From Alphaproteobacteria bacterium (lineage in GTDB: Bacteria > Pseudomonadota > Alphaproteobacteria > Caedimonadales > UBA9215), in contig CBDBFG010000004.1 in assembly GCA_965204765.1 (NCBI GenBank), positions 451,402 through 515,401 on the forward strand: 64,000 nt of DNA, in the 5' to 3' direction. The position numbers and the translations under genes are program-made. Within the stretch, counting starts at the first letter, position 1. Every line of letters begins with the position of its first letter. Shown here piece by piece: positions 4,799 through 59,481 of this stretch. The notes under the pieces were generated by a model that saw nothing but the letters and a program-made list of their open reading frames with translations, was not told the DNA's origin and searched no databases.

Positions 4799-6469
4799 TT
4801 ACAGTTTTACCGATTTTTGTTTCCAGTTTGATTCTAACCATGAGGCAGCCATATCGGATGGCATAGGTTTAGCAATTAAATAACCTTGGCCATAGTGACA
4901 TCCAAGTTTTTGTAAGTGTTGAATTTGCTCTTTTGTTTCAATACCTTCTGCAGTAACGCCAAGGTGTAATTCATTAGCCATTGTAATCGCCGATCGAATA
5001 ATAGCCTCGGAAGCAGAGTTATTTAACATTGATTTTATAAATGATTGGTCGATTTTAATTTCATCCAAGGGCAATTTTAATAAATAATCTAATGACGATT
5101 GTCCAGTGCCAAAATCATCAATCACAATACCTAATTTTTGTTGTTTTAAGGATTGTAATATCTCTGCTATTTTATCAATGTTCTGTGCTACTGCGGTTTC
5201 TGTTATTTCTATTTTTACATTGTGTGGAGAGATCTTATATTGTTTGATTTTTAGCAACAATTGGTCAATTAACCTATGATCTTCTAGATTTTTCATCGAA
5301 AAATTAATTGATAAAATTAAGTTTTTATATTGCTTTTGCCATTGCACCAGTTGCTTGAAAGATTCATTGATCAACCATTCAGTGTATGGATTGATTAATA
5401 AAGTTTTTTCTGCGATAGAGATAAACTCTTTTGGTTCTATCGCACCAAGAGTAGGATGATTCCATCGTGCTAATGCTTCGTACGATACAGCTTTGTTTGT
5501 GGTTAATGAAATTATAGGTTGGTAGTGCAATGATAAGTGATGATCTTTTATTGCTTTATTAAGCTCATGCAAAATGAACATGTTTCTTTCGGGTTGATAA
5601 TAGTCTTTTTGTGGATCAAATTTGGTAATTTGTTGGTTGTTGTTAATTCCTTCTTCTGCAGCAATTGTAGAATTTTTGATCATTTCTTTTAGGTTAGATT
5701 TAGTTAAATTATGGCAATCTGTAGTGCCACAGTAAGTCTCGATATAGAGCGGAATAGAATCGATGATGAATGATCTGTCCAGATGTTGTTGCAAGTTTAA
5801 TGCAAGATTATTCACACTATTATCTTTGTGTGCTGTAATGAGAAATGCATCATTGGATATTTTGGCTAGTAATGAGTTTGGTGCTATCAGGGATTGTATT
5901 CTGGTTGCCAGTTTTTTAGTTACATAATCGGTCAATTCTGGACCAAAGGCTTTTTCTACATTTTTAATATTTTTCAACTTTAATAAGCATATACCGAATA
6001 TACCATCACCTATGTTATTGTTAGCACACAGTTTTTCTAATCCTTTGTAATTTGGTAAGTTTGTTACTGTATCGATCAGGTATTTTTGTTCAATAAATTT
6101 TAAATAGGTTCTGGTTAATTGCGATGCTAAACCGGCGAATAGGCCAACAATCACGAAGAATAAAGTGCGAAAAATCCATGCTTCGGTTGGTTGATAAATT
6201 TGTTCTGGTACTGATTCAGGCATAAATGGTCCCAGTACGATCCCAACCACTATGCCGCATAGCGTGCCGATAGCAACGCCGTAACTAAAGCCAGCAAAAA
6301 TTACTGGTATGTACAAAAAATGCAAATATGATAGTTTTGTTCCACCTGTCTTATAGACTAGATAGCCACCACTGATAATTAATATATTAACGATGAAAAA
6401 AATTAAAATTTTGGCCTTTGTTTTACCGCTGTATAGGTTATTAGCTATGATAGTAAGCCATTTATTCAT
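4799..6469 (-). CDS. Membrane-anchored EAL-domain protein (putative c-di-GMP phosphodiesterase) with a degenerate GGDEF-like middle domain
   Basis: About 4 N-terminal TM helices. The GGDEF-like region has SNDAF in place of GGDEF. EAL-domain motifs are present: YEALARWNHP, EITE, DDFGTGQSSL, KIDQSF, EGIET, QGY. Confidence 0.85.
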   Translation of the reverse strand: MNKWLTIIANNLYSGKTKAKILIFFIVNILIISGGYLVYKTGGTKLSYLHFLYIPVIFAGFSYGVAIGTLCGIVVGIVLGPFMPESVPEQIYQPTEAWIFRTLFFVIVGLFAGLASQLTRTYLKFIEQKYLIDTVTNLPNYKGLEKLCANNNIGDGIFGICLLKLKNIKNVEKAFGPELTDYVTKKLATRIQSLIAPNSLLAKISNDAFLITAHKDNSVNNLALNLQQHLDRSFIIDSIPLYIETYCGTTDCHNLTKSNLKEMIKNSTIAAEEGINNNQQITKFDPQKDYYQPERNMFILHELNKAIKDHHLSLHYQPIISLTTNKAVSYEALARWNHPTLGAIEPKEFISIAEKTLLINPYTEWLINESFKQLVQWQKQYKNLILSINFSMKNLEDHRLIDQLLLKIKQYKISPHNVKIEITETAVAQNIDKIAEILQSLKQQKLGIVIDDFGTGQSSLDYLLKLPLDEIKIDQSFIKSMLNNSASEAIIRSAITMANELHLGVTAEGIETKEQIQHLQKLGCHYGQGYLIAKPMPSDMAASWLESNWKQKSVKL

Positions 6470-15041: not shown

Positions 15042-16154
15042 ATGAAAAAATATGTGTTATTATCGTTAATTTTGTTAGGGTTTATAGAGTTATTTGCCGG
15101 CAATGTAAGAATTAAAGATATTGTTTCTTTTGAAGGTGTACGTGATAACCAATTACTTGGTTATGGGTTAGTTGTAGGTTTGAAAGGTACCGGCGACGAT
15201 TTAAAAAGCTCACCTTTTTCCAAGGAAACTATCATTGGTATGCTTGAACGTCTGGGAGTGAATGTGCGTGAAGACGCAGCGGCAATGAAGGCAAAAAATA
15301 TTGCAGCCGTGATGGTAACGGCTAATTTACCGCCATTTAGTAGACATGGTAGTAAAATAGATGTAACTGTTTCAGCTATTGGGACAGCAAAGGATTTATT
15401 AGGGGGAACCTTGTTGGTGACGCCGTTGATGGGAGCGGATAGTACCGTGTATGCCGTGGCACAAGGGCCAGTTGCTACTAATGCTTTTACTGTACAGGGG
15501 AAATCACAAAGTAGTGTGACCAAGGGAGTACCCACTAGTGGCACTATCACAAATGGTGCAATCATAGAAAAAGAAATAAACTTTGAACTCAAAGATGTAA
15601 AGCAGATGAATTTATCACTGCATAATCCTGATTTTACTACCGCTAAAAGAATTGCTAATGCTATCAATAAATATGCTAAGCAACGAATTGCTTTTGCCTT
15701 GGATCCTTCGACTGTAAAGCTTACTATACCAAATGGTTATGTAAAAAATCCTTTAAATTTTATTACTAGCATCGAACAATTAAGCGTTGTGCCGGACCAA
15801 GCAGCCAAAGTTATTATAGATGAACAGAATGGAGTGGTGGTGATGGGTGACAATGTCCGTATTTCTACGGTTGCCGTCAGTCACGGTAATTTAACGGTTA
15901 AAATTACAGAAACTCCACAGGTATCACAACCAAACCCGTTTGCGAATACCGGAGAAACTAAAGTAGTAGAACGTTCAAAATTAGAGATAGATGAAAATAC
16001 CGACAATAAATTAACCATAGTTAATTCGGGGGCAACTTTGCAAGACTTAGTCAATGGTTTGAACTCTTTAGGTGTTGGGCCACGAGATATGATTACGATT
16101 TTACAGAATATTAAAGCTGCAGGAGCACTGCAGGCTGAAATGGAGGTTAAATAG
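15042..16154 (+). CDS. flgI: Flagellar basal-body P-ring protein FlgI
   Basis: Signal peptide, then RIKDI..FEGVRDNQLLGYGLVVGLKGTGD and a C-terminal LQNIKAAGALQAE..V motif. Confidence 0.92.
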   Translation: MKKYVLLSLILLGFIELFAGNVRIKDIVSFEGVRDNQLLGYGLVVGLKGTGDDLKSSPFSKETIIGMLERLGVNVREDAAAMKAKNIAAVMVTANLPPFSRHGSKIDVTVSAIGTAKDLLGGTLLVTPLMGADSTVYAVAQGPVATNAFTVQGKSQSSVTKGVPTSGTITNGAIIEKEINFELKDVKQMNLSLHNPDFTTAKRIANAINKYAKQRIAFALDPSTVKLTIPNGYVKNPLNFITSIEQLSVVPDQAAKVIIDEQNGVVVMGDNVRISTVAVSHGNLTVKITETPQVSQPNPFANTGETKVVERSKLEIDENTDNKLTIVNSGATLQDLVNGLNSLGVGPRDMITILQNIKAAGALQAEMEVK

Positions 16155-16483
16155 TGAGTGATTCTTTACAAATGTTGGGTAGTTATGGCAATCACGGAGC
16201 TTTACGCGCTCAAAAAGTAGCAGAAAAATTTACCGCTAATTTTTTAAATCCTTTTGTACAGGAAATGTTTGCCTCGACCACAGAAGAATCAGAAGATGTT
16301 TTTCAGGAGTTATTTGCTGCGGAGTTATCAATGTCGTTGGCAAAGTCAGACTCTATGGGATTTCTAGTACAGGCAATAAAAAAACAATTTCTCAAGGGGG
16401 ATAAGATACCTCATGCAAAAGTAAATAATACATATATGGCAATTCAGAAAAAAGGGCAAAATGTTTATACCGCAACTGCTTAA
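16154..16483 (+). CDS. flgJ: Rod-binding protein (FlgJ N-terminal domain only; CheL-like)
   Basis: 109 aa. Rod-binding-like motif (AQKVAEKFTANFLNPFVQEMF). Position immediately after flgI. Confidence 0.6.
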   Translation: MSDSLQMLGSYGNHGALRAQKVAEKFTANFLNPFVQEMFASTTEESEDVFQELFAAELSMSLAKSDSMGFLVQAIKKQFLKGDKIPHAKVNNTYMAIQKKGQNVYTATA

Positions 16484-16505
16484 GTTAATAGATAAATTAT
16501 TCAAT

Positions 16506-16895
16506 ATGACAGAGCAAGAAATGCGCTTAATCCAGATGATGCAAATAAAAAAAGCTACTCATATTGCGAAAGAAAGAGAGCATTTGGTGCAGCTTTATCA
16601 TGGTTGTTTATTTAAAATAGAGAATGATCAAAATATACAGCAGCAGCTTAAGCATTCTGATGAAGCGCACAGAATAAAACAAGAAATTTTACGTTTAAGT
16701 GATTTACTATCACGGTATGATCGTATTTTAAAGAGGGTGGAACGATCTAAGGCAACATTTTTGCAAAATACGCAAAAATCTTTTATGCACAAAGATCATA
16801 AAGTTAAACGTTATGATAAAGAGGGATATATATCAGATGATTTTAAACCTTTTATTAAGCAGAAACTGGATAATATAAAGTATGACAGTCTTTGA
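16506..16895 (+). CDS. Hypothetical flagellar-cluster protein (position of Caulobacter flbY; possibly an FlgN-like chaperone)
   Basis: Helical, charged 129-144 aa ORF between flgJ and flgK. The ORF track starts at 16461, overlapping flgJ. The assignment is by context only. Confidence 0.35.
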   Translation: MTEQEMRLIQMMQIKKATHIAKEREHLVQLYHGCLFKIENDQNIQQQLKHSDEAHRIKQEILRLSDLLSRYDRILKRVERSKATFLQNTQKSFMHKDHKVKRYDKEGYISDDFKPFIKQKLDNIKYDSL

Positions 16896-16906
16896 GGTAA
16901 GCACAT

Positions 16907-18691
16907 ATGGCTAATACTATAGGCGGTAGTTTGCATACAGCCATGAAAGAACAGGAATTGTTAGTGCAAAATATCCAGCAAGCTAGTGATCCCAATTATT
17001 CACGGAAAATATCTGCTACAGAAACTTTAGTCTCAGATGGTGAGGTTGTAGATGTTAAGCCCGGTGTGGTAACAAGAGCGGCTGACTTTTTTCGAGAGCG
17101 AACTATCAGAGAACAAAAATCAGAGGCAAGTTATCTAGAGGTTTTAGCGACAATATATAATAGAATAGAAGGTAGATTGGGTCAGCCAGGAGATGACACT
17201 TCCCTGGGTTCAAGAATAAAATCAGTGGCCAATAAATTAACAGCATTACATAGTGAGCCAGAAAATCATGATTTGGTTACCCATTTTATAAGGGAGTTAA
17301 AGGATACTGTTGGGTACATCAATAATATGGGTAACTTTTATCAATCGCAAAGAGAGCAAGCAGAAAGCAGTATCAAACAAGCAGTAGATAATATCAATGG
17401 TATTTTACAAGAATTACGTAAAGTGAATGATTCTATTACTAAGGTAGATGCAAGTGATATAGCTACTTATCAAGATTTGCAAGATAAATTGTTAAAAGAT
17501 TTATCGCAATATGTAGATTATAATTGTTTTTATAATACTGATGGTACGGTGTCGGTAGATATTAATGGTGGTCATGCGTTATTGCGTCCTCAATTTGCTG
17601 CTACTCTTGCTTTTCAGCCTGTGGCTGCTATCGGACCTCTCAATGAAAACTCAACACTAGGAAAATTATATATAGATGGGGAAAATGTTACTGGTTCTAT
17701 CTATGGTGGAGAGGTTGGGGCGTTTTTTCATATTCGTGATTTTGTTTTGCCTAATTTACAGGCTGAACTTGATGAATTTTCTGTACAATTGCGTGATATG
17801 ATTAATGCTGTGCACAATAAAGGTGTAGGTAAAGAAACAAATAGCAGTCTTACCAGTACACGTGCCTTTAATGCTCCCGGAGTCGAAGTAATGCGCATGG
17901 ATAGTGCCGTGCGTATTGCTATTATGGATGCGGACAATCAGATAGTTGCAGATGTACTAGATCTTGATTTAAGTGATCGTGATTATACTATTACAGAGGT
18001 TGTAACGTTAATAAACAATCATCTGGTGGCAGAGGGAATAGGTACTGCAATCATAGATAGTGGTAAAGTTGTCATTACCGCTAATGATAATAGCCATGGT
18101 GTGGCAATCGTATCCTTGGCTGCACAAGAGGCAAAAGAAACGACCACAGGGCTGGGATTTTCGCATTTTTTTGGTTTTAATGATCTATTACAAACAGGCA
18201 CTAGGTATGTGCAAGATGGTAATCCAGTAAAAGCAGGCATTGCGCAACAGTTATCTGTTAATCCGGATATATTACAAAATTATCACTTATTATCTTCTGG
18301 TTCACTATCGCAAGAGGTAAATATAGACATTGGCGATAAAGCCATAGAATTTGGTAATCCTGAAGTTATACATGAATTGAAAAGTGTGTTAGATTTTGAA
18401 CGCATAGGGTTTGCCGATGCTGGTGCTATGCTACACAGGACCGATACTATGGTTGGGTTTGCTAACGCCATGTGGCAGCATACTTTATTAGATATAAGAA
18501 ATGTCAAAGACGATTTAGATATCCAACAAACAACATTAAAAAAAACCGAGCAGGAATTAAGGGATAATGTTGGCGTGGATATTGAAAAGACCTATGAACA
18601 GTTTTTTAATTTACAATATTTGATTAGAGCCTTGCATGAACTGCGCAAAGCAGATTATGAGGCAAAAATGCGTTTAGTAAGTATTTTTTAA
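16907..18691 (+). CDS. flgK: Flagellar hook-associated protein 1, FlgK
   Basis: 594 aa. The N-terminus (L.TA...Q..L.V...NI.N...P.YSR) and the C-terminal heptad region are typical of HAP1. Confidence 0.85.
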   Translation: MANTIGGSLHTAMKEQELLVQNIQQASDPNYSRKISATETLVSDGEVVDVKPGVVTRAADFFRERTIREQKSEASYLEVLATIYNRIEGRLGQPGDDTSLGSRIKSVANKLTALHSEPENHDLVTHFIRELKDTVGYINNMGNFYQSQREQAESSIKQAVDNINGILQELRKVNDSITKVDASDIATYQDLQDKLLKDLSQYVDYNCFYNTDGTVSVDINGGHALLRPQFAATLAFQPVAAIGPLNENSTLGKLYIDGENVTGSIYGGEVGAFFHIRDFVLPNLQAELDEFSVQLRDMINAVHNKGVGKETNSSLTSTRAFNAPGVEVMRMDSAVRIAIMDADNQIVADVLDLDLSDRDYTITEVVTLINNHLVAEGIGTAIIDSGKVVITANDNSHGVAIVSLAAQEAKETTTGLGFSHFFGFNDLLQTGTRYVQDGNPVKAGIAQQLSVNPDILQNYHLLSSGSLSQEVNIDIGDKAIEFGNPEVIHELKSVLDFERIGFADAGAMLHRTDTMVGFANAMWQHTLLDIRNVKDDLDIQQTTLKKTEQELRDNVGVDIEKTYEQFFNLQYLIRALHELRKADYEAKMRLVSIF

Positions 18692-22081: not shown

Positions 22082-22819
22082 GTGTGGTGTTCTGTGCATT
22101 ATCCGTCTCATTTGATTTCTGGTAAGTTGATTAAGCGTTATAAAAGATTTTTAGCTGATGTCGAGCTTGATAATGGTCAGATAATTACCGCACACTGTGC
22201 TAATCCTGGTGCTATGATTACGTTACAGGATCAAGGTAGCAAAGTTTTTTTAACCAAAGTTCCTGATAATATTGATCGCAAGCTAAGATATGACTGGATT
22301 TTAATCGAGGTGGATAACGATCTTGTCGGTGTGCACACTTCGCTGACCAATAAAATAGTATATGAAGGGTTGCAACAGGGCACCGTGCAAGAATTAAAAC
22401 ATTACAATGCTATTAAACCTGAAGTTAAATACGGTTTACAGGGTAGTAGAATAGATTTTTTATTATCACAAGAAGAGTATCCTGATTGTTACCTTGAGGT
22501 AAAAAATGTGAATCATATGGAGGAAAAAGGGACTGCCTTATTTCCAGATGCGATTACTAGCAGAGGTACTAAGCACTTGCAAGAGCTTATGTATGTTGTA
22601 AAACAAGGCATGCGTGCCATAGTATTATATGTTGTGCAACGTAATGATTGTAACTATTTTGCTGTAGCAGATAACATAGATAATGTTTATAGTCAGACTG
22701 TTGTACAGGCAAAAAGGGCTGGGGTAGAATTTCTTTGTTATCGATGTCATATCGACTTACAGTCTGTTACTTTATCAAAAAAAATTAAAATTATTGAGGG
22801 TGGTATGTATGACAAATGA
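22082..22819 (+). CDS. sfsA: Sugar fermentation stimulation protein SfsA (DNA-binding/nuclease fold)
   Basis: G.LIKRYKRFLADVELDNG...AHC.NPG signature; 245 aa. Confidence 0.85.
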   Translation: MWCSVHYPSHLISGKLIKRYKRFLADVELDNGQIITAHCANPGAMITLQDQGSKVFLTKVPDNIDRKLRYDWILIEVDNDLVGVHTSLTNKIVYEGLQQGTVQELKHYNAIKPEVKYGLQGSRIDFLLSQEEYPDCYLEVKNVNHMEEKGTALFPDAITSRGTKHLQELMYVVKQGMRAIVLYVVQRNDCNYFAVADNIDNVYSQTVVQAKRAGVEFLCYRCHIDLQSVTLSKKIKIIEGGMYDK

Positions 22820-24504: not shown

Positions 24505-25382
24505 TTATTTTTTGATTAATTTATTTTGAATTGCAGCTTTCGTTGGTAGTTTTAGTTCCCATGCTAAACCTAGTTTTTCCATGAATTTTATTACTATATA
24601 TGAAAAATCAATTTGCCAAAATTTTAATCCATGACGTGAAGAATAGGGAAAAGCATGATGATTATTGTGCCAGCCTTCACCAAGAGAAAGTATAGCCACA
24701 ATAAAGTTATTTTTGCTGTTGTCCTTTGATTGAAACAGCTTTTTACCTATCAAATGGCATAATGAATTTACGGACCATGTCACATGGTGCCAAGCGCATA
24801 GTCTGATTATTCCTCCCCACAGAAATCCAGATAGAAACCCATACCAATTTTGTGCGATAATGCCGCCTATTATTGCCGGTAACAGCAATCCTATTAACAT
24901 CCATAATCCGTACTTGTTTTGGATTTTGATTAGGGTTATATCTTTACTAATATCTTTTATTACTTGAAGATATTTCTCTTCTGGTAACGGTTTGAATATC
25001 CATCCCATGTGTGAATGAAGAAAACTTTTAATCCTGCCGAAAATCCTTTGTTTAGCACAGGGGAATGTGGATCTCCGTCTCTATCTGTGAAATGGTGATG
25101 TATTCTGTGTGAACCAACCCAAAATTTTAAATTTCCTTGTCCCGCCATAGAGCCCAGGATGCATAATGTGTATTTCATGATCTTATTAGTTTTAAAACTC
25201 ATATGGGCAAAATACCTATGGTATCCAATCGTAATACCAAAAGCAGAGATTAAATAAAACACAACGAACAAGGTTATATCAGTTGTGCTGACACCGTTTA
25301 TAATCGAGTTTGCCACAGCGATTACTAGGCCTATATTTATTGCAGTTATTCCTGAAATTGTCTTAATTGATAGCATGTTCAC
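24505..25382 (-). pseudogene. Acyl-CoA/acyl-lipid (delta-9 type) fatty-acid desaturase, interrupted by a 1-nt frameshift in a T4 run (plus-strand A4 at 25040..25043)
   Basis: The three His boxes are split over two overlapping ORFs: HRYFAH and HRIHHH in 24960..25382, HNNHH in 24505..25008. The downstream frame reads upstream as FGRIKSFLHSHMGWIF, joining directly to ...DPHSPVLNKGF of the first frame. Confidence 0.8.
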
Positions 25383-25565
25383 ATTCCACTAACTAGTATT
25401 TAAAGTACAGTATTTTTTTTAACAGGTACAGACAGCTTGTATCGTACTTATTATTCTCTTTATCTTCATATTAATTAAATATTAAGATGCTAAACGTTAA
25501 GGTAATTAAAGTTTCATATAGCGTCAAGTATTTTTGTATCTGATCAATCAAGTATCAAGCGTCTA

Positions 25566-27892: not shown

Positions 27893-29056
27893 TTATTTCG
27901 ATATTTTGTTTCCTGGATGACGCGTTACTTTTGCTGCTAATTCTAGTTCTAGTAGGGTTGACAGCACTAGCGATGATGAATATGCGCATGCTCGTAATAA
28001 TTCATCAACATGAATAGGGGTAGTAGTTAGGTGTTCCAATATTTCTAGTCTAAGATTAGCAATAGATTTTTCATCTTGATTGTAGTCGCTTTCTTTTTCC
28101 GTGGTATAGTTAGTATAATCATCCACTTCACTGTGACTTTCATGCAGTACATGTTTATATGGTTCTTCTAATACATCAACTATATCTTGGGCGCATGTTA
28201 CCAGATTTGCACCATTTCTAATTAAATCATTGCTACCATGATATCTAGGGTCTAATGGCGATCCAGGAACGACGAACACATCTCTGTTTTGTTCAGAGGC
28301 ATATCTAGCTGTAATTAGTGATCCAGATTGCAAGGCTGCTTCAACTACTATGGTCCCTTGTGATAATGCTGCTATTAGATAGTTTCTTTTAGGAAACAGA
28401 CACCCCTTTGGTTCAGTGCCAATGGGAGATTCGGCAACAACTACGCCATTGTCATATATTTCATGATATAAGGTTTGATTTTCTGTTGGGTATATTTGAT
28501 CAATACCACCAGCTATTACAGCTATAGTTCCTGTTTCTAAAGCACCTTTGTGAGCTTGGGCATCAATACCGCGTGCTAATCCTGATACTGTTATGTATCC
28601 TTCTGCTCCTAGTTCTTTAGCCAATAAATAAGCAATTTTTTTGCCGTTTATAGAACAATTGCGTGCTCCGATTATACTTACCGCTTTTTTATTAAAGTGT
28701 TCGGCTTTTCCTTTGATGCTGAGGATAGGAGGGGCTTCATATACGCCTTGTAAAATGTCTGGAAAGTCACATTCCCCATCTACTACTATTCTAGCACCGA
28801 TTTTTTCATGTTGTTCTATTTCTTCTACCGCACTTGATTCTGGATAAAGTTTCAGATTGGCGTTTAGTCCTCCTCTGGCTGCTAATTCAGGTAGCACATC
28901 CAGCGCTCTTACAGCATTTTTATACTTTGATAAAAGATTTCTGTAGGTAACTGAGCCAACATTTTGTGATCTATACAGCCTAATACGAGCTATTTTTTCC
29001 TGAGTGGAGATATTAGATTTGTACAGACTACTTTTTTTGAATGGAATTACGCCCAA
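27893..29056 (-). CDS. dprA: DNA-processing protein DprA (Smf)
   Basis: SGLARGIDAQAHKGAL..G.TIAV.AGG.D..YP..N and VVVEA...SGSLITA motifs. Conserved dprA-topA adjacency. Confidence 0.88.
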   Translation of the reverse strand: MGVIPFKKSSLYKSNISTQEKIARIRLYRSQNVGSVTYRNLLSKYKNAVRALDVLPELAARGGLNANLKLYPESSAVEEIEQHEKIGARIVVDGECDFPDILQGVYEAPPILSIKGKAEHFNKKAVSIIGARNCSINGKKIAYLLAKELGAEGYITVSGLARGIDAQAHKGALETGTIAVIAGGIDQIYPTENQTLYHEIYDNGVVVAESPIGTEPKGCLFPKRNYLIAALSQGTIVVEAALQSGSLITARYASEQNRDVFVVPGSPLDPRYHGSNDLIRNGANLVTCAQDIVDVLEEPYKHVLHESHSEVDDYTNYTTEKESDYNQDEKSIANLRLEILEHLTTTPIHVDELLRACAYSSSLVLSTLLELELAAKVTRHPGNKISK

Positions 29057-30882: not shown

Positions 30883-32122
30883 GTGTTTAAAGCTATAAAT
30901 TGATAATTAAAGATGTATGGAAGGTAGAGATGAGCAAGGAGAAGTTTGAGAGGAATAAGCCTCACGTTAATATAGGAACGATAGGTCACGTTGATCATGG
31001 TAAGACTACGTTGACGGCTGCGATTACGAAGGTATTGGGAGATGCTGGAGGAGCTGAGTTTACGGATTATGATCAGATAGATAAGGCACCTGAGGAGAAG
31101 GCTAGGGGTATAACGATTAATACTTCTCATGTTGAGTATGAGACGGAGAATCGTCATTATGCGCACGTTGATTGTCCTGGTCACGCGGATTATGTGAAGA
31201 ACATGATTACTGGAGCTGCGCAGATGGATGGTGGTATATTGGTTGTGAATGCTGCTGATGGTCCTATGCCTCAGACACGTGAGCACATACTTTTGGCCCG
31301 TCAGGTTAACGTTCCTGCGTTGGTTGTTTATATGAACAAGGTTGATCAGGTTGATGACGAGGAGTTGTTGGATTTGGTTGAGTTGGAGATTCGTGAGTTA
31401 TTGAGTAGTTATGAGTTTCCTGGTGATGATATACCGATTATTAGAGGTTCTGCGCTTTGTGCGTTGGAAGGTAGGGAAGATAAGATAGGTCGTGATTCTA
31501 TTTTAGAATTAATGAAGTCTGTTGATAGTTTTATACCTGAGCCTAAGCGTGATATAGACAAGCCATTTTTGATGCCGATAGAGGATGTATTTTCGATATC
31601 TGGTCGTGGTACGGTTGTTACAGGTCGAGTTGAGCGTGGTATTGTTAAGGTTGGTGACGAGATAGAGATGGTTGGTATACGAGATACTAGCAAGACTACT
31701 GTTACTGGTGTAGAGATGTTCCGTAAGCTTTTGGATGAAGGTCGAGCTGGTGATAACGTTGGAGTGTTGCTTCGAGGAGTTGGTCGAGAGGATATAGAGC
31801 GTGGTCAAGTTTTGGCGCATCCTGGTACGGTATCTCCACATACGGAGTTTGAGTGTGAGGCTTATGTTCTTACTAAGGAAGAGGGTGGGCGTCATACGCC
31901 GTTTTTTGGTAATTATCGCCCGCAGTTTTATTTTAGGACGACAGATGTTACTGGTTCTGTAGAGTTGTTGGGTGGTAAAGAGATGGTTATGCCCGGTGAC
32001 AATGTGAAGATGAAAGTTCAGTTGATATCTCCGATAGCTATGGATGAGGGTGATCGTTTTGCTATTCGTGAGGGTGGTAGAACTGTTGGTGCTGGTGTTA
32101 TTAGTAAAATTATTAAATAGTT
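30883..32122 (+). repeat. 1240-bp direct repeat, copy 1 (tuf with 47 bp upstream and 2 bp downstream)
   Basis: Appears base-for-base identical to 46941..48180 (offset 16058). Sampled lines match, the proteins match, and the antisense shadow ORFs in other frames are also identical. Confidence 0.85.
30930..32120 (+). CDS. tuf: Elongation factor Tu (copy 1)
   Basis: [31 protein letters not shown]..., [12 protein letters not shown]. The ATG at 30930 is preceded by GGAAGGTAGAG; the ORF-track TTG at 30900 is rejected. Confidence 0.97.
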
Positions 32123-39577: not shown

Positions 39578-39698
39578 TATTGCAAATATAGCGACTTAAT
39601 TTTTTATAGTTTTAGGTGTTGTAGTTTTTTATGAATTGCAATTATTGGGTAAGTAATCCTGTTATGCGTAAGCTAATAACCGTTTTTTGGAGCGAATA

Positions 39699-42600
39699 AT
39701 GAAAGATGTAATGAATGTATTTGGCAAGGATCAAGGTCCTGAAAGTTTTGATTTTTTAAGGGTTTTGATTGCTAGTCCCGAGCAGATTAAGTCTTGGTCT
39801 TTTGGTGAGGTGAAAAAGCCAGAGACTATAAATTATCGTACTTTTAAGCCTGAAAGGGATGGGTTATTTTGTTCGCGTATTTTTGGCCCAATTAAAGATT
39901 ATGAATGTTTGTGCGGTAAGTACAAGAGAATGAAGTACCGTGGTATTACGTGTGAAAAATGTGGTACAGAAGTGACGCTGGCGAAGGTTCGTCGTGAAAG
40001 AATGGGGCATATAGATCTAGCTGCTCCTGTAGCTCATATATGGTTTACTAGGGCTATGCCAAGTAGGGTTGCTACGTTGTTAGATTTGACAATGAAGGAC
40101 TTAGAAAAAATACTTTATTACGATTCATATATAGTGATTGATCAAGGGTTATCTGGTTTGCAGAAAAACCAGTTGCTGACAGAAGATGAGTATTGTGATG
40201 CATTGGATGAATTTGGTGAAGGTTCATTTACAGCAGGAATTGGAGCAGAGGCTGTTCAGTCATTATTGTCCGGTATTAATTTGGCTCAAGAAAGTGTTAG
40301 TTTGCGGGAGGAGCTTGCAGCAACTAAATCAGAGATGAAGAGGAAGCGTATCATAAAACGTTTAAAGTCGGTAGAGGCCTTTTTGGATTCAAAATCTAAT
40401 CCAGAATGGATGATTTTACAGGTATTGCCTGTATTACCTCCGGAATTAAGGCCGCTTGTGCCTCTTGATGGCGGTAGATTTGCTACGTCTGATTTGAATG
40501 ACTTATATCGTAGGGTGATTAACCGTAATAATCGTTTGAAAAGATTAATAGAGCTGCGTGCTCCTGATCTGATCATCAGGAATGAAAAGCGTATGTTACA
40601 AGAAGCTGTGGATGCTTTGTTTGATAACAGCAGAAGAAGTAGGCCAATAGTAGGTTCTAATAAACGTCCGTTAAAATCCTTGGCTGATATGCTTAAAGGT
40701 AAGCAAGGTAGATTCCGTCAAAACTTGTTAGGGAAAAGGGTAGATTATTCAGGTCGTTCCGTAATCGTTGTTGGTCCAGAGTTGAAGCTGCACCAGTGTG
40801 GTATCCCAAAAAAAATGGCGTTGGAATTATTTAAGCCTTTCGTATATTCACGATTAGAGCGTTATGGGCTTGCAACGACTATTAAAGCTGCTAAGAGAAT
40901 GGTCGAAAAATGTCGTTCTGAGGTTTGGGATATATTAGAAGAGGTTATACGTGAGCATCCTGTATTGTTAAATCGTGCGCCTACTTTGCACAGGCTTGGA
41001 ATACAGGCATTTGAGCCAATGTTGGTTGAGGGTAAGGCTATTCAATTGCATCCATTGGTATGTACGGCATTTAATGCCGATTTTGATGGTGACCAAATGG
41101 CTGTTCATGTGCCGTTGTCTGTTGAGTCGCAGTTAGAGTCACGTGTGCTTATGATGTCTACTAATAACATTTTGCATCCGGCTAACGGTAAGCCGGTTAT
41201 CAATCCAACGAAAGATGTGGTGTTAGGGTTATATTATTTGACAGTGGAGCGCGAAGGTGAAAAAGGCGAGGGTATGTGCTTTGCTGATGTTGGTGAGATT
41301 CAGCTTGCACTAGATAATGGTTTAGTTTCGTTGCATACGAAAATTAAGGCGCGTTTTGTTAGTGTTGATGAGGGGGGTGACCCTGCGTCTTGTATGGTTG
41401 ATACTACTGTTGGTCGTATGATACTTTCTGAGGCTTTGCCTAGGAGTGCGAAGATTAAATTTGATATAATCAATAAGATTATTACTAATAAAGAAATTAG
41501 TTCTATTATTGATGAGATATATCGTTACTGTGGACAGAAGGAAACAGTGATATTCTGTGATAGAATTATGGCCATAGGGTTTAAGTATGCTACCGTTTCT
41601 GGTATATCATTCGGAAAAGATGATTTGTTGATTCCTGGTGATAAGAAAATATTGGTAGATGAGACAAGGTCAATAGTTGGTGAGTATGAAAAAAACAATA
41701 TCTAGATGGTTTTATTACCCAAGGTGAAAAATATAACAAGGTTGTAGATGCTTGGTCTCAGTGTACTGATAAAGTAGCAGGATCGATGATGAAGGGTATT
41801 TCTTCGGCAAGTCCAGGTGCTCCTTTAAACTCTGTTTATATGATGTCTCATTCTGGAGCGCGAGGGTCAGCGGCGCAAATGAAGCAATTGGCTGGTATGC
41901 GAGGGTTGATGACTAAGCCTAATGGTGAGATCATTGAAACCCCTATTATTTCAAACTTTAAAGAAGGGTTATCTGTATTGGAGTATTTTAATTCTACTCA
42001 CGGTGCGCGTAAAGGTTTGTCGGATATGGCGTTGAAAACAGCCAATTCTGGATATTTAACTCGTCGTCTAGTTGATGTGGCACAAGATGCTGTGATTATA
42101 GAGGATGATTGTGGTACTGATAAGAAAATAAAGGTTGCTCCTATCATTGAAGGTAGTGAGATTATTACTACTATTTCTGAGCGTGTGTTAGGTAGGACTG
42201 CTGGAGAAGATGTAATGCATCCAGAGACCGGTGACGTTATAGTTGAACGTGGTGCGATAATCAATGAAGCTATTGTAGAGGTTATAGATAGGGCTGGTAT
42301 AGACAGTATGCATGTTAGATCTCCTTTAACTTGTGAGTCTATAGATGGTGTGTGTGCTACTTGTTATGGTAGGGATTTGGCAAGGGGATCCAAGGTGAAT
42401 ATGGGTGAGGCTGTTGGGGTTATTGCTGCACAGTCTATCGGTGAACCTGGTACTCAACTTACTATGCGTACTTTCCATATAGGTGGAGCGGCGCAAGGAA
42501 GTGGTGAAAAATCTAGCATAGAATCGGCTGCTGATGGTCTGGTTACCGTTTTAAATCGTAATGTTGTGAAAAATAGTAATGGCGATTTGATTGTGATGGT

Positions 42601-43852
42601 TCGTAATATGGAAGTTGTGGTAAGTGATGTAAAGGGCTTTGAGAAAGTTCGTTATAAGTTGCCGTATGGTGCTAAATTATTGGTTGATTCAGATAGTAAG
42701 GTAAAAGTTGGGCAAAAAATAGCTGATTGGGATCCGTTTACTACTCCTATCGTGTCCGAGATTGATGGTATAGCCAAATTTGATGATTTAATAGAGGGTG
42801 TTTCTGTGCGCGAAGTGGTGGATAGTGCTACTGGTCTAACCAGCAGGGTTGTTACCAATTGGCGTCAACAGGCGCGCAGCAGTGATTTAAAGCCTCGTAT
42901 TTCCTTAGTGGATAAGGATGGTAAAGTATTAAAGTTGTCCAACGGAATGGAAGCTAGATACTTTCTTTCTGCAGATGCGATTATCAGTACTGATAGTGGT
43001 GTCAAGGTTAATAGTGGAGATGTCATAGCTCGTATTCCAAGAGAAACTTCTCGCACCAGAGATATTACAGGTGGTTTGCCTAGGGTTGCTGAATTATTTG
43101 AGGCTCGTATGCCAAAAGATTATTCTGTCATAAGTGAACTTGATGGTCGTGTAGAATTTGGCAAGGATTATAAGACGAAGCGTTTGATCAGGGTTGTTCC
43201 AGAAGGAAATGATATTCAGCCTGTTGAGTATATGATACCTAAAGGTAGGCACGTTGTTGTGTTTGAAGGTGATTATGTGCGTAAAGGTGAGACACTAGTA
43301 GATGGGAATCCGGTGCCGCATGATATTTTACGAGTATTAGGCTCAGAAGCTTTGGCTTCTTACCTGATTAATGAAATACAAGAAGTGTATCGTTTGCAAG
43401 GTGTGCCTATTAATGACAAGCATATAGAGGTCATTGTGCGTCAAATGCTTAGAAAGGTTGAAATATCAGATCCTGGTGATTCTATGTATTTGGTGGGTGA
43501 GCATGTTGATAAGCGTGAATTAGAAAAGGTGAATTCTAATTTGTTGGCGCAAGATAAAACAGCAGCCAAGTCGTTTGAGGTGTTGCAAGGAATTACTAAG
43601 GCTTCATTGCAGACTAAGTCATTTATTTCTGCGGCATCTTTCCAGGAGACTACAAGAGTGTTAACAGATGCTGCTGTAAATGGAAAGCGTGATGATTTGG
43701 TGGGGCTAAAAGAAAATATTATTATTGGTAAGTTAATACCTGCTGGTACTGGTAGCGTAGTGAGTGAGATGAAGTCACAAGCTATTCTCTCTGATGATTC
43801 TGTCGATAATGGTGTTGAGGTGACAGTTGAAAATGAACCATCTGTAAATTAG
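39699..43852 (+). CDS. rpoC: DNA-directed RNA polymerase subunit beta' with its reading frame interrupted by a 1-nt shift at the A7 tract 41689..41695
   Basis: The N-half (ORF 39687..41705) has the Zn-finger [20 protein letters not shown] and [12 protein letters not shown]. The C-half frame, open from 41690, continues [20 protein letters not shown]...[18 protein letters not shown]...[17 protein letters not shown]. No residues are missing at the junction. Confidence 0.95.
41690..41696 (+). other. Candidate recoding site: in-phase A_AAA_AAC heptamer within the A7 run
   Basis: The 0-frame reads GAA AAA AAC AAT ATC TAG. The -1 frame is closed upstream by TGA at 41687..41689. Both frames are open only over 41690..41702. 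Confidence 0.5.
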
Positions 43853-43904: not shown

Positions 43905-43975
43905 GCCGCCACAAGCAGTACATTTTTTTTTGTTAAGATTGTTTTAGGTAGATAATATTAAGGAAGGAAGGCTTT

Positions 43976-46940: not shown

Positions 46941-48180
46941 GTGTTTAAAGCTATAAATTGATAATTAAAGATGTATGGAAGGTAGAGATGAGCAAGGAGA
47001 AGTTTGAGAGGAATAAGCCTCACGTTAATATAGGAACGATAGGTCACGTTGATCATGGTAAGACTACGTTGACGGCTGCGATTACGAAGGTATTGGGAGA
47101 TGCTGGAGGAGCTGAGTTTACGGATTATGATCAGATAGATAAGGCACCTGAGGAGAAGGCTAGGGGTATAACGATTAATACTTCTCATGTTGAGTATGAG
47201 ACGGAGAATCGTCATTATGCGCACGTTGATTGTCCTGGTCACGCGGATTATGTGAAGAACATGATTACTGGAGCTGCGCAGATGGATGGTGGTATATTGG
47301 TTGTGAATGCTGCTGATGGTCCTATGCCTCAGACACGTGAGCACATACTTTTGGCCCGTCAGGTTAACGTTCCTGCGTTGGTTGTTTATATGAACAAGGT
47401 TGATCAGGTTGATGACGAGGAGTTGTTGGATTTGGTTGAGTTGGAGATTCGTGAGTTATTGAGTAGTTATGAGTTTCCTGGTGATGATATACCGATTATT
47501 AGAGGTTCTGCGCTTTGTGCGTTGGAAGGTAGGGAAGATAAGATAGGTCGTGATTCTATTTTAGAATTAATGAAGTCTGTTGATAGTTTTATACCTGAGC
47601 CTAAGCGTGATATAGACAAGCCATTTTTGATGCCGATAGAGGATGTATTTTCGATATCTGGTCGTGGTACGGTTGTTACAGGTCGAGTTGAGCGTGGTAT
47701 TGTTAAGGTTGGTGACGAGATAGAGATGGTTGGTATACGAGATACTAGCAAGACTACTGTTACTGGTGTAGAGATGTTCCGTAAGCTTTTGGATGAAGGT
47801 CGAGCTGGTGATAACGTTGGAGTGTTGCTTCGAGGAGTTGGTCGAGAGGATATAGAGCGTGGTCAAGTTTTGGCGCATCCTGGTACGGTATCTCCACATA
47901 CGGAGTTTGAGTGTGAGGCTTATGTTCTTACTAAGGAAGAGGGTGGGCGTCATACGCCGTTTTTTGGTAATTATCGCCCGCAGTTTTATTTTAGGACGAC
48001 AGATGTTACTGGTTCTGTAGAGTTGTTGGGTGGTAAAGAGATGGTTATGCCCGGTGACAATGTGAAGATGAAAGTTCAGTTGATATCTCCGATAGCTATG
48101 GATGAGGGTGATCGTTTTGCTATTCGTGAGGGTGGTAGAACTGTTGGTGCTGGTGTTATTAGTAAAATTATTAAATAGTT
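46941..48180 (+). repeat. 1240-bp direct repeat, copy 2 (tuf with 47 bp upstream and 2 bp downstream)
   Basis: Identical to 30883..32122. Identity starts at gtgtttaaagctataaattg and ends 2 nt after the TAG stop. Confidence 0.85.
46988..48178 (+). CDS. tuf: Elongation factor Tu (copy 2)
   Basis: Protein identical to copy 1. Canonical position after fusA. Confidence 0.97.
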
Positions 48181-59436: not shown

Positions 59437-59481
59437 CATAAATGTCGTAATTAAACATTGACTTTTATGTGTTTTTTTTTT
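59436..59481 (+). terminator. Terminator candidate after adk
   Basis: AT-rich stem ACATAAA/TTTATGT (59436..59442 and 59464..59470) followed by a T10 run (59472..59481). The stem is weak; the T-run is striking. Confidence 0.35.

Follow-up and report, generated by a model that had tools for sequence, protein, structure and literature searches.

Known A-tract frameshifts and divided beta' subunits

In public assemblies, above all those built from long reads, genes can be split by homopolymer or indel errors in the consensus, with a single homopolymer frame change in an otherwise perfect essential gene; the rpoC gene described here has the same appearance. A second parallel is offered by Buchnera and Blochmannia, host-associated lineages in which A-run frameshifts likewise occur in intact genes, including information-processing genes. 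The work of Tamas et al. (2008) and of Wernegreen et al. (2010), as summarized in PMC3017870, describes the rescue of such poly(A) frameshifts by transcriptional slippage; both papers also appear among the references of PMC4256274. The tracts in these endosymbionts are typically at least 9 bases long, and their authors use conservation across strains or species as a criterion, whereas the rpoC tract is 7 bases long, lies in the gene of a core RNA polymerase (RNAP) subunit and is not conserved between species.

The housekeeping gene dnaX also carries an in-phase A-rich heptamer, A_AAA_AAG, accompanied by an upstream SD and a downstream hairpin. At dnaX-type sites the SD is located about 10-14 nt upstream of the heptamer. 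The rpoC site differs from dnaX in its final base (C, not G), in the absence of the hairpin and in an SD-like element that lies 5 nt rather than about 10 nt upstream. The -1 ribosomal frameshift of IS1 (insA-insB'), which we take to be the 'A_AAA_AAC_1' cluster, presumably operates at an efficiency of roughly 1%. Its in-phase heptamer is identical to that of rpoC and has no established stimulator (PMC4066793). However, IS1 needs only traces of transposase and its site is conserved, whereas rpoC would need near-full output of an essential protein from a site that is not conserved.

Finally, beta' is covered by two polypeptides in cyanobacteria and chloroplasts (gamma/RpoC1 and beta'/RpoC2), and the two rpoC frames described below would likewise cover it in two parts. 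Unlike the present break, the natural cyanobacterial split, which lies about 85 residues further upstream, leaves every residue encoded, provides both genes with a proper start and is found phylum-wide.

Organization of the rpoC locus

The DNA analysed, referred to here as the window, is a stretch of 64 kb with a GC content of 37.3%, 90% of which is coding. It contains rpoC as two ORFs, both on the + strand, at 39687..41705 (probable ATG at 39699) and 41786..43852. The features of the locus are:

39699..41705, + strand: N-terminal frame of rpoC, with 665 beta' residues followed by an out-of-frame tail N-N-I and TAG; Pfam Rpb1 domains 1, 2 and 3
41687..41689, + strand: TGA closing the -1 frame upstream, formed from the conserved TAT GAA (Tyr-Glu) codons
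41689..41695, + strand: A7 homopolymer in which the frame change lies, two bases beyond the A5-equivalent GAA AAR CAA of relatives
41690..41696, + strand: A_AAA_AAC heptamer in X_XXY_YYZ phase, the phase being forced by the codon context
41696..41785, + strand: orphan stretch of 30 codons, read in the -1 frame, without an ATG, GTG or TTG start
41703..41705, + strand: TAG closing the 0 frame, produced by out-of-frame reading of CTA GAT, the conserved Leu-Asp codons
41786..43852, + strand: C-terminal frame of rpoC from its first ATG; Pfam Rpb1 domains 4 and 5

An earlier note on this DNA had reported the two-ORF structure, the bounding TGA and TAG and the in-phase heptamer in the A7 run; these coordinates agree with the sequence. 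Across the run the 0 frame reads GAA AAA AAC, and the frame switch falls within 41689..41695. Counted from the start of the heptamer, the -1 frame extends over 41690..43852, and upstream of its first Met at 41786 it is open for 32 protein letters. There is no ATG, GTG or TTG in frame across 41690..41785 that could start a C-terminal fragment; the ATG at 41686 and the GTG at 41680, near the tract, belong to the third frame. Both halves are beta' (Pfam Rpb1 domains 1-3 and 4-5) and show no other defects.

Tract length in relatives

Comparison of the tract with that of close relatives shows whether a proposed repair recreates the conserved protein. The relatives' peptide at this site is E-Y-E-(K/Q)-Q-Y-L-D. 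Because their codons read GAA AAG CAA, GAA CAA CAA or GAG CAA CAA (codon-level comparison against L001, L003 and L006), the rpoC tract carries two extra bases. The nearest relative, which is 88% identical, has GAA AAG CAA in frame. Identity to this relative is 92% in the N-terminal half and 85% in the C-terminal half, and in the 30 codons that follow the tract 27/30 residues are identical, without a stop.

In the earlier note the break was described as purely a 1-nt change of frame that leaves the conserved sequence complete. This description is not borne out: A7 is +2 relative to the relatives, and it is an A5 version of the gene (two A's removed), encoding 1,383 aa, that aligns without a gap to the nearest relative's 1,383-aa protein. 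Nor does the repair proposed with it (A8 or a -1 slip) restore the conserved beta' exactly, since its product is one residue too long. The SFG-GEKYNK motif spacing becomes 39, against 38 in 119/120 of the closest homologs, and the extra residue is present in 0 of the 119 closest homologs in which it is measurable.

The earlier note had proposed comparing the tract with related species; the frame break is found in none of those compared. A conserved frameshift, as expected for -1 PRF, is absent from the related genomes, all 120 top homologs being full length (1,374-1,418 aa), and the tract itself is of normal length in L001, L003, L006, L087 and L088. All 80 of the alphaproteobacterial genome loci listed match unbroken over the junction; these are generic alphaproteobacterial rpoC at no more than 71% identity, a set that lies outside the source organism and its close kin. 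A metagenome scan with a degenerate pattern spanning the tract returned only two distant contigs, with the same local motif and normal length. The organism itself is represented in the collections searched by one assembly (P0121, cluster of 1), and conservation of the break was judged between species.

The relatives among the top homologs are protist-symbiont-like lineages (Caedimonas, Paracaedimonas and Nucleicultrix). In the relatives examined rpoC is single-copy, in the same context (rplKAJL-rpoBC-rpsLG-fusA). This bears on a reading in which A7 is real but is not the sole copy, being complemented either by intact copies in a mixed population (for example in a polyploid symbiont) or by an intact second rpoC outside the window. 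Homopolymer length variants readily arise, the lesion looks very recent and shows no secondary decay, and the region inspected is a 64-kb window of a contig of at least 793 kb. Nevertheless, this reading is very unlikely: a consensus normally represents the majority allele, and a second rpoC, which the earlier note had named as evidence that would speak against recoding, is absent from the 64-kb window, where one rpoC is present, as in the relatives.

Search for recoding signals at the site

The precise phase of the heptamer is no independent coincidence, as it follows automatically from adding AA to GAA-AAR-CAA. Because the phase is forced by the codons and the genes of the window contain 47 in-phase A_AAA_AAN and 111 in-phase X_XXW_WWN heptamers, an in-phase heptamer does not discriminate between explanations. 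Judged from the sequence, the heptamer bears no apparent sign of selection, and nothing at the site appears to be adapted for recoding. A stimulatory RNA structure, which would be expected to begin some 5-8 nt downstream, is absent: three downstream segments (50, 80 and 120 nt) and one of 101 nt across the site fold no better than shuffled sequences (z = +0.4 to +1.1), in agreement with the earlier note, which had found no convincing stem-loop there. An upstream SD-like stimulator at dnaX-type spacing is likewise absent. The GGTGAG at 41679..41684 ends 5 nt before the heptamer, rightly considered too close for an SD role, and merely encodes Gly-Glu; the nearest relative has GGC GAA at this position.

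The tract is also short when set against published slippage thresholds (PMC6260861, PMC5009743, PMC3017870). Appreciable slippage takes about 9 bases or more; for E. coli RNAP the limit is 8 A's on the coding strand, and on shorter runs slippage is not detectable (PMC6260861). On the ribosomal side, a heptamer that lacks a stimulator yields at most about 0.5% shifting in E. coli (PMC4066793), and in this species A_AAA_AAC is far less shifty than A_AAA_AAG (PMC5009743).

These figures bear on the reading that the +2 insertion is real and that slippage along the A run rescues a small fraction of the product. RNAP could add one A or omit two, or tRNA-Lys could slip by -1 or by +2, the last giving the exact ancestral protein, and rpoC would then be comparable to IS1 or to genes with frameshifts in insect endosymbionts. 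The frame change does fall within an A/T homopolymer, the two halves of the gene and the 30 codons between them are undamaged, and the assembly is accurate at homopolymers apart from rpoC. The same heptamer is used by an IS cluster without a known stimulator, the one A_AAA_AAC case proven in bacteria (PMC4066793), the relatives are protist-symbiont-like, and the essential Blochmannia genes dnaX, dnaG and pth have tract frameshifts (PMC3017870). However, A7 is under the detection threshold of E. coli RNAP (PMC6260861), and the rescued endosymbiont tracts, typically of at least 9 bases, occur in genomes with more than 100 such tracts (PMC3017870). The 64-kb window is not of this extremely AT-rich kind, dense in long coding poly(A) tracts: at 37% GC, its longest coding A run is 8 and none reaches 9. 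Moreover, a transcriptome-wide survey of Buchnera detected no restored frames (PMC5574713), and the stimulator that would lift a ribosomal shift above about 0.5% (PMC4066793) is absent here. The -1 or +1 A product would carry its extra residue 4 positions before the Gre/DksA-binding tip, the break is kept in no relative, and a drop in beta' output of about 100-fold or more is hard to square with viability. Rescue of a real lesion by slippage thus appears rather unlikely.

Synonymous divergence just downstream of the tract is slightly low (7 observed vs 11.2 expected, P about 0.06). Such a reduction would favour slippage rescue, but as a hidden signal it was set aside, since this P value, obtained after correction for amino-acid composition, comes from a post-hoc window and a comparator that has no frameshift.

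A possible two-piece beta'

Alternatively, the frameshift may be real and beta' may consist of an N-terminal fragment ending in GEYEKNNI and a C-terminal fragment from the ATG at 41786 or 41789, that is, a newly split RNAP subunit without the tip of its rim helices. Active enzyme has reportedly been assembled from E. coli beta' that was split by engineering, which counts in favour of such an arrangement. The cyanobacterial beta' is naturally split, and its RpoC2 chains (8syi_Z, 8gzg_Z and 8h3v_B) begin within the query region used here, at about query residue 14. The present break, however, maps to query residue 98, close to residue 668 of E. coli, about 85 residues downstream of that point and inside a coiled coil, not between modules. 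Compared with RpoC1/RpoC2, the split is therefore not at the conserved inter-module position, and the two parts do not each have their own start and stop with all residues covered, 30 codons being orphaned.

The orphan codons encode the tip of the beta' rim helices, with equivalents of E. coli L672/V673, E677 and N680/K681 (residues taken from PMC3333854 and PMC6488371). Substitutions at these places (672/673, 677 and 680/681) give viable or active enzyme (PMC3333854, PMC6488371), which would make loss of the tip easier to accept; yet the 30 codons, translated by neither fragment, are intact and retain their 27/30 identity to the nearest relative. As for initiation, an AGGA sits 3 nt and 6 nt ahead of the tandem ATGs at 41786 and 41789, and the public gene call (P0121; 687 aa, 100% identical to the C-terminal half) starts at the second of them. 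This AGGA is forced by Ala-Gly codons, however, and no start codon stands between the tract and 41786. Since, in addition, none of the relatives is split at this point, a two-piece beta' is scarcely likely.

Assembly quality and the favoured explanation

The A7 tract is probably an uncorrected assembly or base-calling indel, or at most a variant other than that of the functional gene. Base-calling or assembly error is thus favoured among the three options that the earlier note had left unranked, and transcriptional slippage and -1 ribosomal frameshifting are disfavoured. An artefact is preferred because the break is unique to one assembly, in a gene that is otherwise flawless and intact in relatives; because recoding signals are absent while in-phase heptamers are common; and because any genuine rescue would fall far short of what a core RNAP subunit needs. 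Further support comes from another indel that breaks a frame in this window and from error-split rpoC genes in other public assemblies. In this case the organism would make a normal single-chain beta', and the true tract would be either A5 (GAA AAA CAA, an exact match to the relatives) or A8 (a lineage-specific extra Lys, one base having been under-called). The reads would be expected to disagree with the consensus.

The second indel is a -1 deletion in a fatty-acid desaturase gene on the minus strand, at about 25012..25020, with no long homopolymer nearby. Once a single base is repaired, one Pfam match again spans profile positions 7-228; the break could equally be that of a genuine pseudogene. 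As to other assemblies, rpoC is split in L089 (GCA_038146985.1) by an extra G next to the EQQYLDG motif, with rpoB and fusA also shattered, and in L090 (ERZ25039540 contig_35812) it is likewise split by an obvious error. Both are riddled with breaks, however, including fragmented rpoB and fusA, whereas the present window has two in 64 kb. A hotspot of error or mutation shared with L089 was considered and rejected: L089 has gained a G, a further frame change lies within the same 120 nt of a heavily fragmented locus, and the break in L090 is about 120 residues away.

Homopolymer errors are rare in this assembly, because of the 46 homopolymers of at least 7 bases in genes, nine of them runs of 8, only that of rpoC is at a frame break, and the neighbouring genes (rpoB, fusA, tuf and the adjoining ribosomal protein genes) are intact. 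This otherwise clean assembly counts against an artefact. So does the size of the lesion, which is awkward for a simple error: it is +2 relative to the relatives' A5-equivalent, whereas typical homopolymer errors are plus or minus 1. A -1 error fits only a true tract of A8, and A8 would entail a genuine additional Lys where length is invariant in 119/120 homologs.

A +2 insertion that is genuine and fixed, with either unusually efficient slippage on A7 or a two-piece beta' missing the part of the rim helices that binds Gre/DksA, their tip, is unlikely. By the first route, a +2 slip of tRNA-Lys or a 2-nt deletion in the transcript could recreate the ancestral beta'. If true, beta' would here be the first known case of a core RNAP subunit that relies on recoding or a novel split; the tract would be shorter than any known for useful slippage, with a bearing on the decay of expression in host-restricted bacteria. 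It should be borne in mind that in an AT-rich genome an indel in an A run automatically places the frame break on a slippery heptamer, and that such a position is not evidence of programmed frameshifting.

Other candidate split genes in the window, at A8 or T7 overlaps, resolve into separate complete genes: SfsA and an M24 peptidase at 22777, and PlsY, DprA and TopA at 29032/29057.

Anatomy of the rpoC break

The window holds a single copy of rpoC, with rplKAJL-rpoB upstream and rpsL-rpsG-fusA downstream; a mixed population or a second rpoC copy is a distinctly improbable explanation of its broken frame. The elements of the break are as follows.

39687..41705, forward strand: first rpoC frame (0 frame), probable ATG at 39699, Pfam Rpb1 domains 1-3
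41689..41695, forward strand: run of seven A's (A7), from the sequence
41690..41696, forward strand: in-phase heptamer A_AAA_AAC, from the sequence
41786..43852, forward strand: second rpoC frame (-1 frame), Pfam Rpb1 domains 4-5

The 0-frame codons at the break are GGT GAG TAT GAA AAA AAC AAT ATC TAG. The -1 frame is ended by a TGA at 41687..41689, after which it reads AAA AAA CAA TAT CTA GAT and encodes 32 residues, then MMKG. The positions of both frames, their stops, the A7 run and the heptamer agree with the earlier note. The organism's own public C-terminal gene call (P0121, found with the C-terminal half as query) has 687 aa, is 100% identical, forms a cluster of one and lies on a 792,892-bp contig.

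Conservation and size of the lesion

The best 120 homologs of the repaired protein are all full length (1,374-1,418 aa). Among the matches listed, 80/80 alphaproteobacterial genome loci span the junction as one segment, all at no more than 71% identity and none from close kin. A degenerate DNA pattern spanning the tract retrieved two metagenome contigs (67-71% nucleotide identity), both of normal length. The frameshift at this site is absent from every sequence available for comparison, all of them from other species. The tract comparison proposed in the earlier note thus covers related species, in which the break is absent.

In the closest beta' homolog (P0001, from an ENA metagenome contig, 88% identity), as in the next group at 79%, the stretch is E-Y-E-(K/Q)-Q-Y-L-D, encoded by GAA AAG CAA, GAA CAA CAA or GAG CAA CAA. 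At the tract, the window reads GAAAAAAACAA, two bases more than P0001 and the 79% group. Deletion of two A's gives a 1,383-aa beta' that aligns without gaps to the P0001 product of 1,383 aa; repair by an eighth A (A8) or by a -1 slip gives a beta' longer by one residue. The spacing from SFG to GEKYNK is 38 in 119/120 of the closest beta' sequences (the motif search had no match in the last one) vs. 39 after A8 repair. The claim that the -1 frame continues conserved beta' with no residue missing therefore conceals one residue too many in a segment of invariant length, and the rpoC lesion, judged by alignment, is +2 rather than -1.

The break had also been said to lie precisely in heptamer phase; as the codons read, this exact phase is no signal. 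Adding A's to GAA-AAR-CAA inevitably places G AAA AAA C in the observed phase, and the genes of the window hold 47 in-phase A_AAA_AAN heptamers, five of them A_AAA_AAG (in-phase X_XXW_WWN heptamers number 111 in the window's 58 kb of coding sequence). The -1-frame TGA derives from conserved TAT GAA and the 0-frame TAG is CTA GAT out of frame; the closest relative, with TAT GAA and TTA GAT, thus has the same latent stops. The SD-like hexamer GGTGAG is a pair of Gly-Glu codons, GGC GAA in that relative.

Possible recoding

A real lesion rescued by slippage, ribosomal or transcriptional, is unlikely, lacking the signals and conservation that mark known cases. RNA folds of 50, 80 and 120 nt downstream, and of 101 nt across the heptamer, were no better than dinucleotide shuffles (z +0.4 to +1.1), bearing out the earlier failure to see a convincing stem-loop. 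IS1, which shifts frame at about 1% efficiency, is presumably the insertion element that uses this heptamer. The sole proven bacterial A_AAA_AAC shift site is in an IS element, and E. coli heptamers without a stimulator reach 2.1-10 times a background of ~0.055% (PMC4066793). Transcriptional slippage in bacteria involves runs of about 9-11 (PMC5009743, PMC4256274); with E. coli RNAP it is undetectable below seven T's or eight A's (PMC6260861). It grows exponentially with run length, and a transcriptome-wide survey in Buchnera gave zero restored frames (PMC5574713). The endosymbiont genomes that serve as precedent contain 114-153 coding poly(A) tracts of at least 9 bp, and their authors rely on conservation across strains and species (PMC3017870; bioRxiv 10.1101/2022.08.28.505559). 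In contrast, the window has 37.3% GC and a longest coding A run of 8. With such rescue, the organism would live on about 1% of normal beta' output at most.

Synonymous divergence from the closest relative over the 30 codons at 41696..41785 is low (7 of 27 identical residues, 1.7th percentile uncorrected). As a hidden signal this was rejected: after correction for amino-acid composition, 7 were observed vs. 11.2 expected (P ~0.06, not significant; 3.7% of windows equally low), and the comparator has no frameshift. Composition and chance are probably the cause.

A possible split subunit

In E. coli beta' numbering, the break falls at about residue 668. The rim helices are residues 649-717, with the Gre/DksA contact at L672/V673, then E677, and ppGpp site 2 at N680/K681 (PMC3333854, PMC6488371). 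The break thus lies inside them, four residues before L672/V673 and just upstream of E677 and N680/K681. Cyanobacterial RpoC2 chains, in contrast, start about 85 residues earlier, so this is not the natural split point. A C fragment started at ATG 41786 or 41789 would lack 30 codons for the rim-helix tip; these are intact, with 27/30 identical to the closest relative, and contain no canonical start codon. A functional beta' in two pieces, missing a conserved element and again without the signals or conservation of known cases, is very improbable.

Assembly quality and weighing of explanations

The window is ~90% coding. It has 58 homopolymers of at least 7 bases, 46 in genes, nine runs of 8 among them; the rpoC run alone coincides with a frame break. 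The longest, T9 (43923..43931, between rpoC and rpsL) and T10 (59472..59481), are intergenic and may be the T tract of a terminator or of a promoter spacer. A screen of every abutment of two long frames on one strand found one further broken gene:

24505..25388, reverse strand: split fatty-acid desaturase, lesion ~25012..25020, Pfam profile positions 7-103 and 89-228

Its lesion, at GTTTTCTTC^ATTC, is the loss of one base outside any homopolymer. One base inserted there restores a single Pfam match (7-228), the expected FFHSHMGW motif and a 290-aa protein with histidine boxes HRYFAH, HRIHHH and HNNHHA. Either a genuine pseudogene or a further assembly error could account for this. The window therefore has two frame-breaking indels, +2 in the A run of rpoC and -1 in the desaturase.

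Error-split rpoC is not unusual in public data, because two other alphaproteobacterial assemblies show it. L089 (GCA_038146985.1, JAYQSQ010000016.1, 3395..3545) has an extra G directly before EQQYLDG, with rpoB and fusA fragmented; in L090 (ERZ25039540 contig_35812, ~3085) the frame is lost near residue 545, and rpoB and fusA are truncated as well. Both assemblies are far dirtier than the window, and the position of the L089 break near the shared EQQYLDG motif was judged a chance coincidence.

The A7 break is probably an assembly or base-calling error, a reading that requires one unlikely step. It may be that an A5 run was miscalled by +2, or that the lineage has genuinely gained a Lys (A8) and the run was called one base short. 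Most likely, the rpoC break is not real biology. Should reads confirm A7, it would be an unusual form of the endosymbiont homopolymer frameshift, in a core polymerase subunit and at a tract below the shortest length known to work.

The gene block is itself flanked by a repeat:

30900..32120 and 46958..48178: two tuf copies flanking secE-nusG-rplKAJL-rpoBC-rpsLG-fusA, the usual tufA/tufB arrangement

Duplicated tuf can mislead assemblers, and the closest relative's contig (L001/L002; ENA ERZ25068762 ctg143520_3x_c, 30,239 bp, labels 3x and _c) is seemingly a case. On it the fusA-tuf-secE-nusG-rplKAJL-rpoBC-rpsLG block is present about twice, with tuf, nusG, rplK and rplA fragmented in the second copy. 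The contig appears to come from long reads at low coverage and to have been closed in error via tuf, and so to be error-prone. Both its rpoC copies encode an identical 1,383-aa protein.

Relatives and flagellar genes

The nearest named relatives are the protist endosymbionts Caedimonas, Paracaedimonas and Nucleicultrix (beta' identity 71-73%), yet the organism itself seems not to be a heavily reduced symbiont. Flagellar FlgI and FlgK and a GGDEF-EAL protein are encoded at 15042..18691 and 4799..6469. Neither of the open frames (110 and 156 codons) that lie between flgI and flgK, at 16151..16895, has a Pfam match; they may be non-coding, or else diverged flagellar genes such as FlgJ-like ones.
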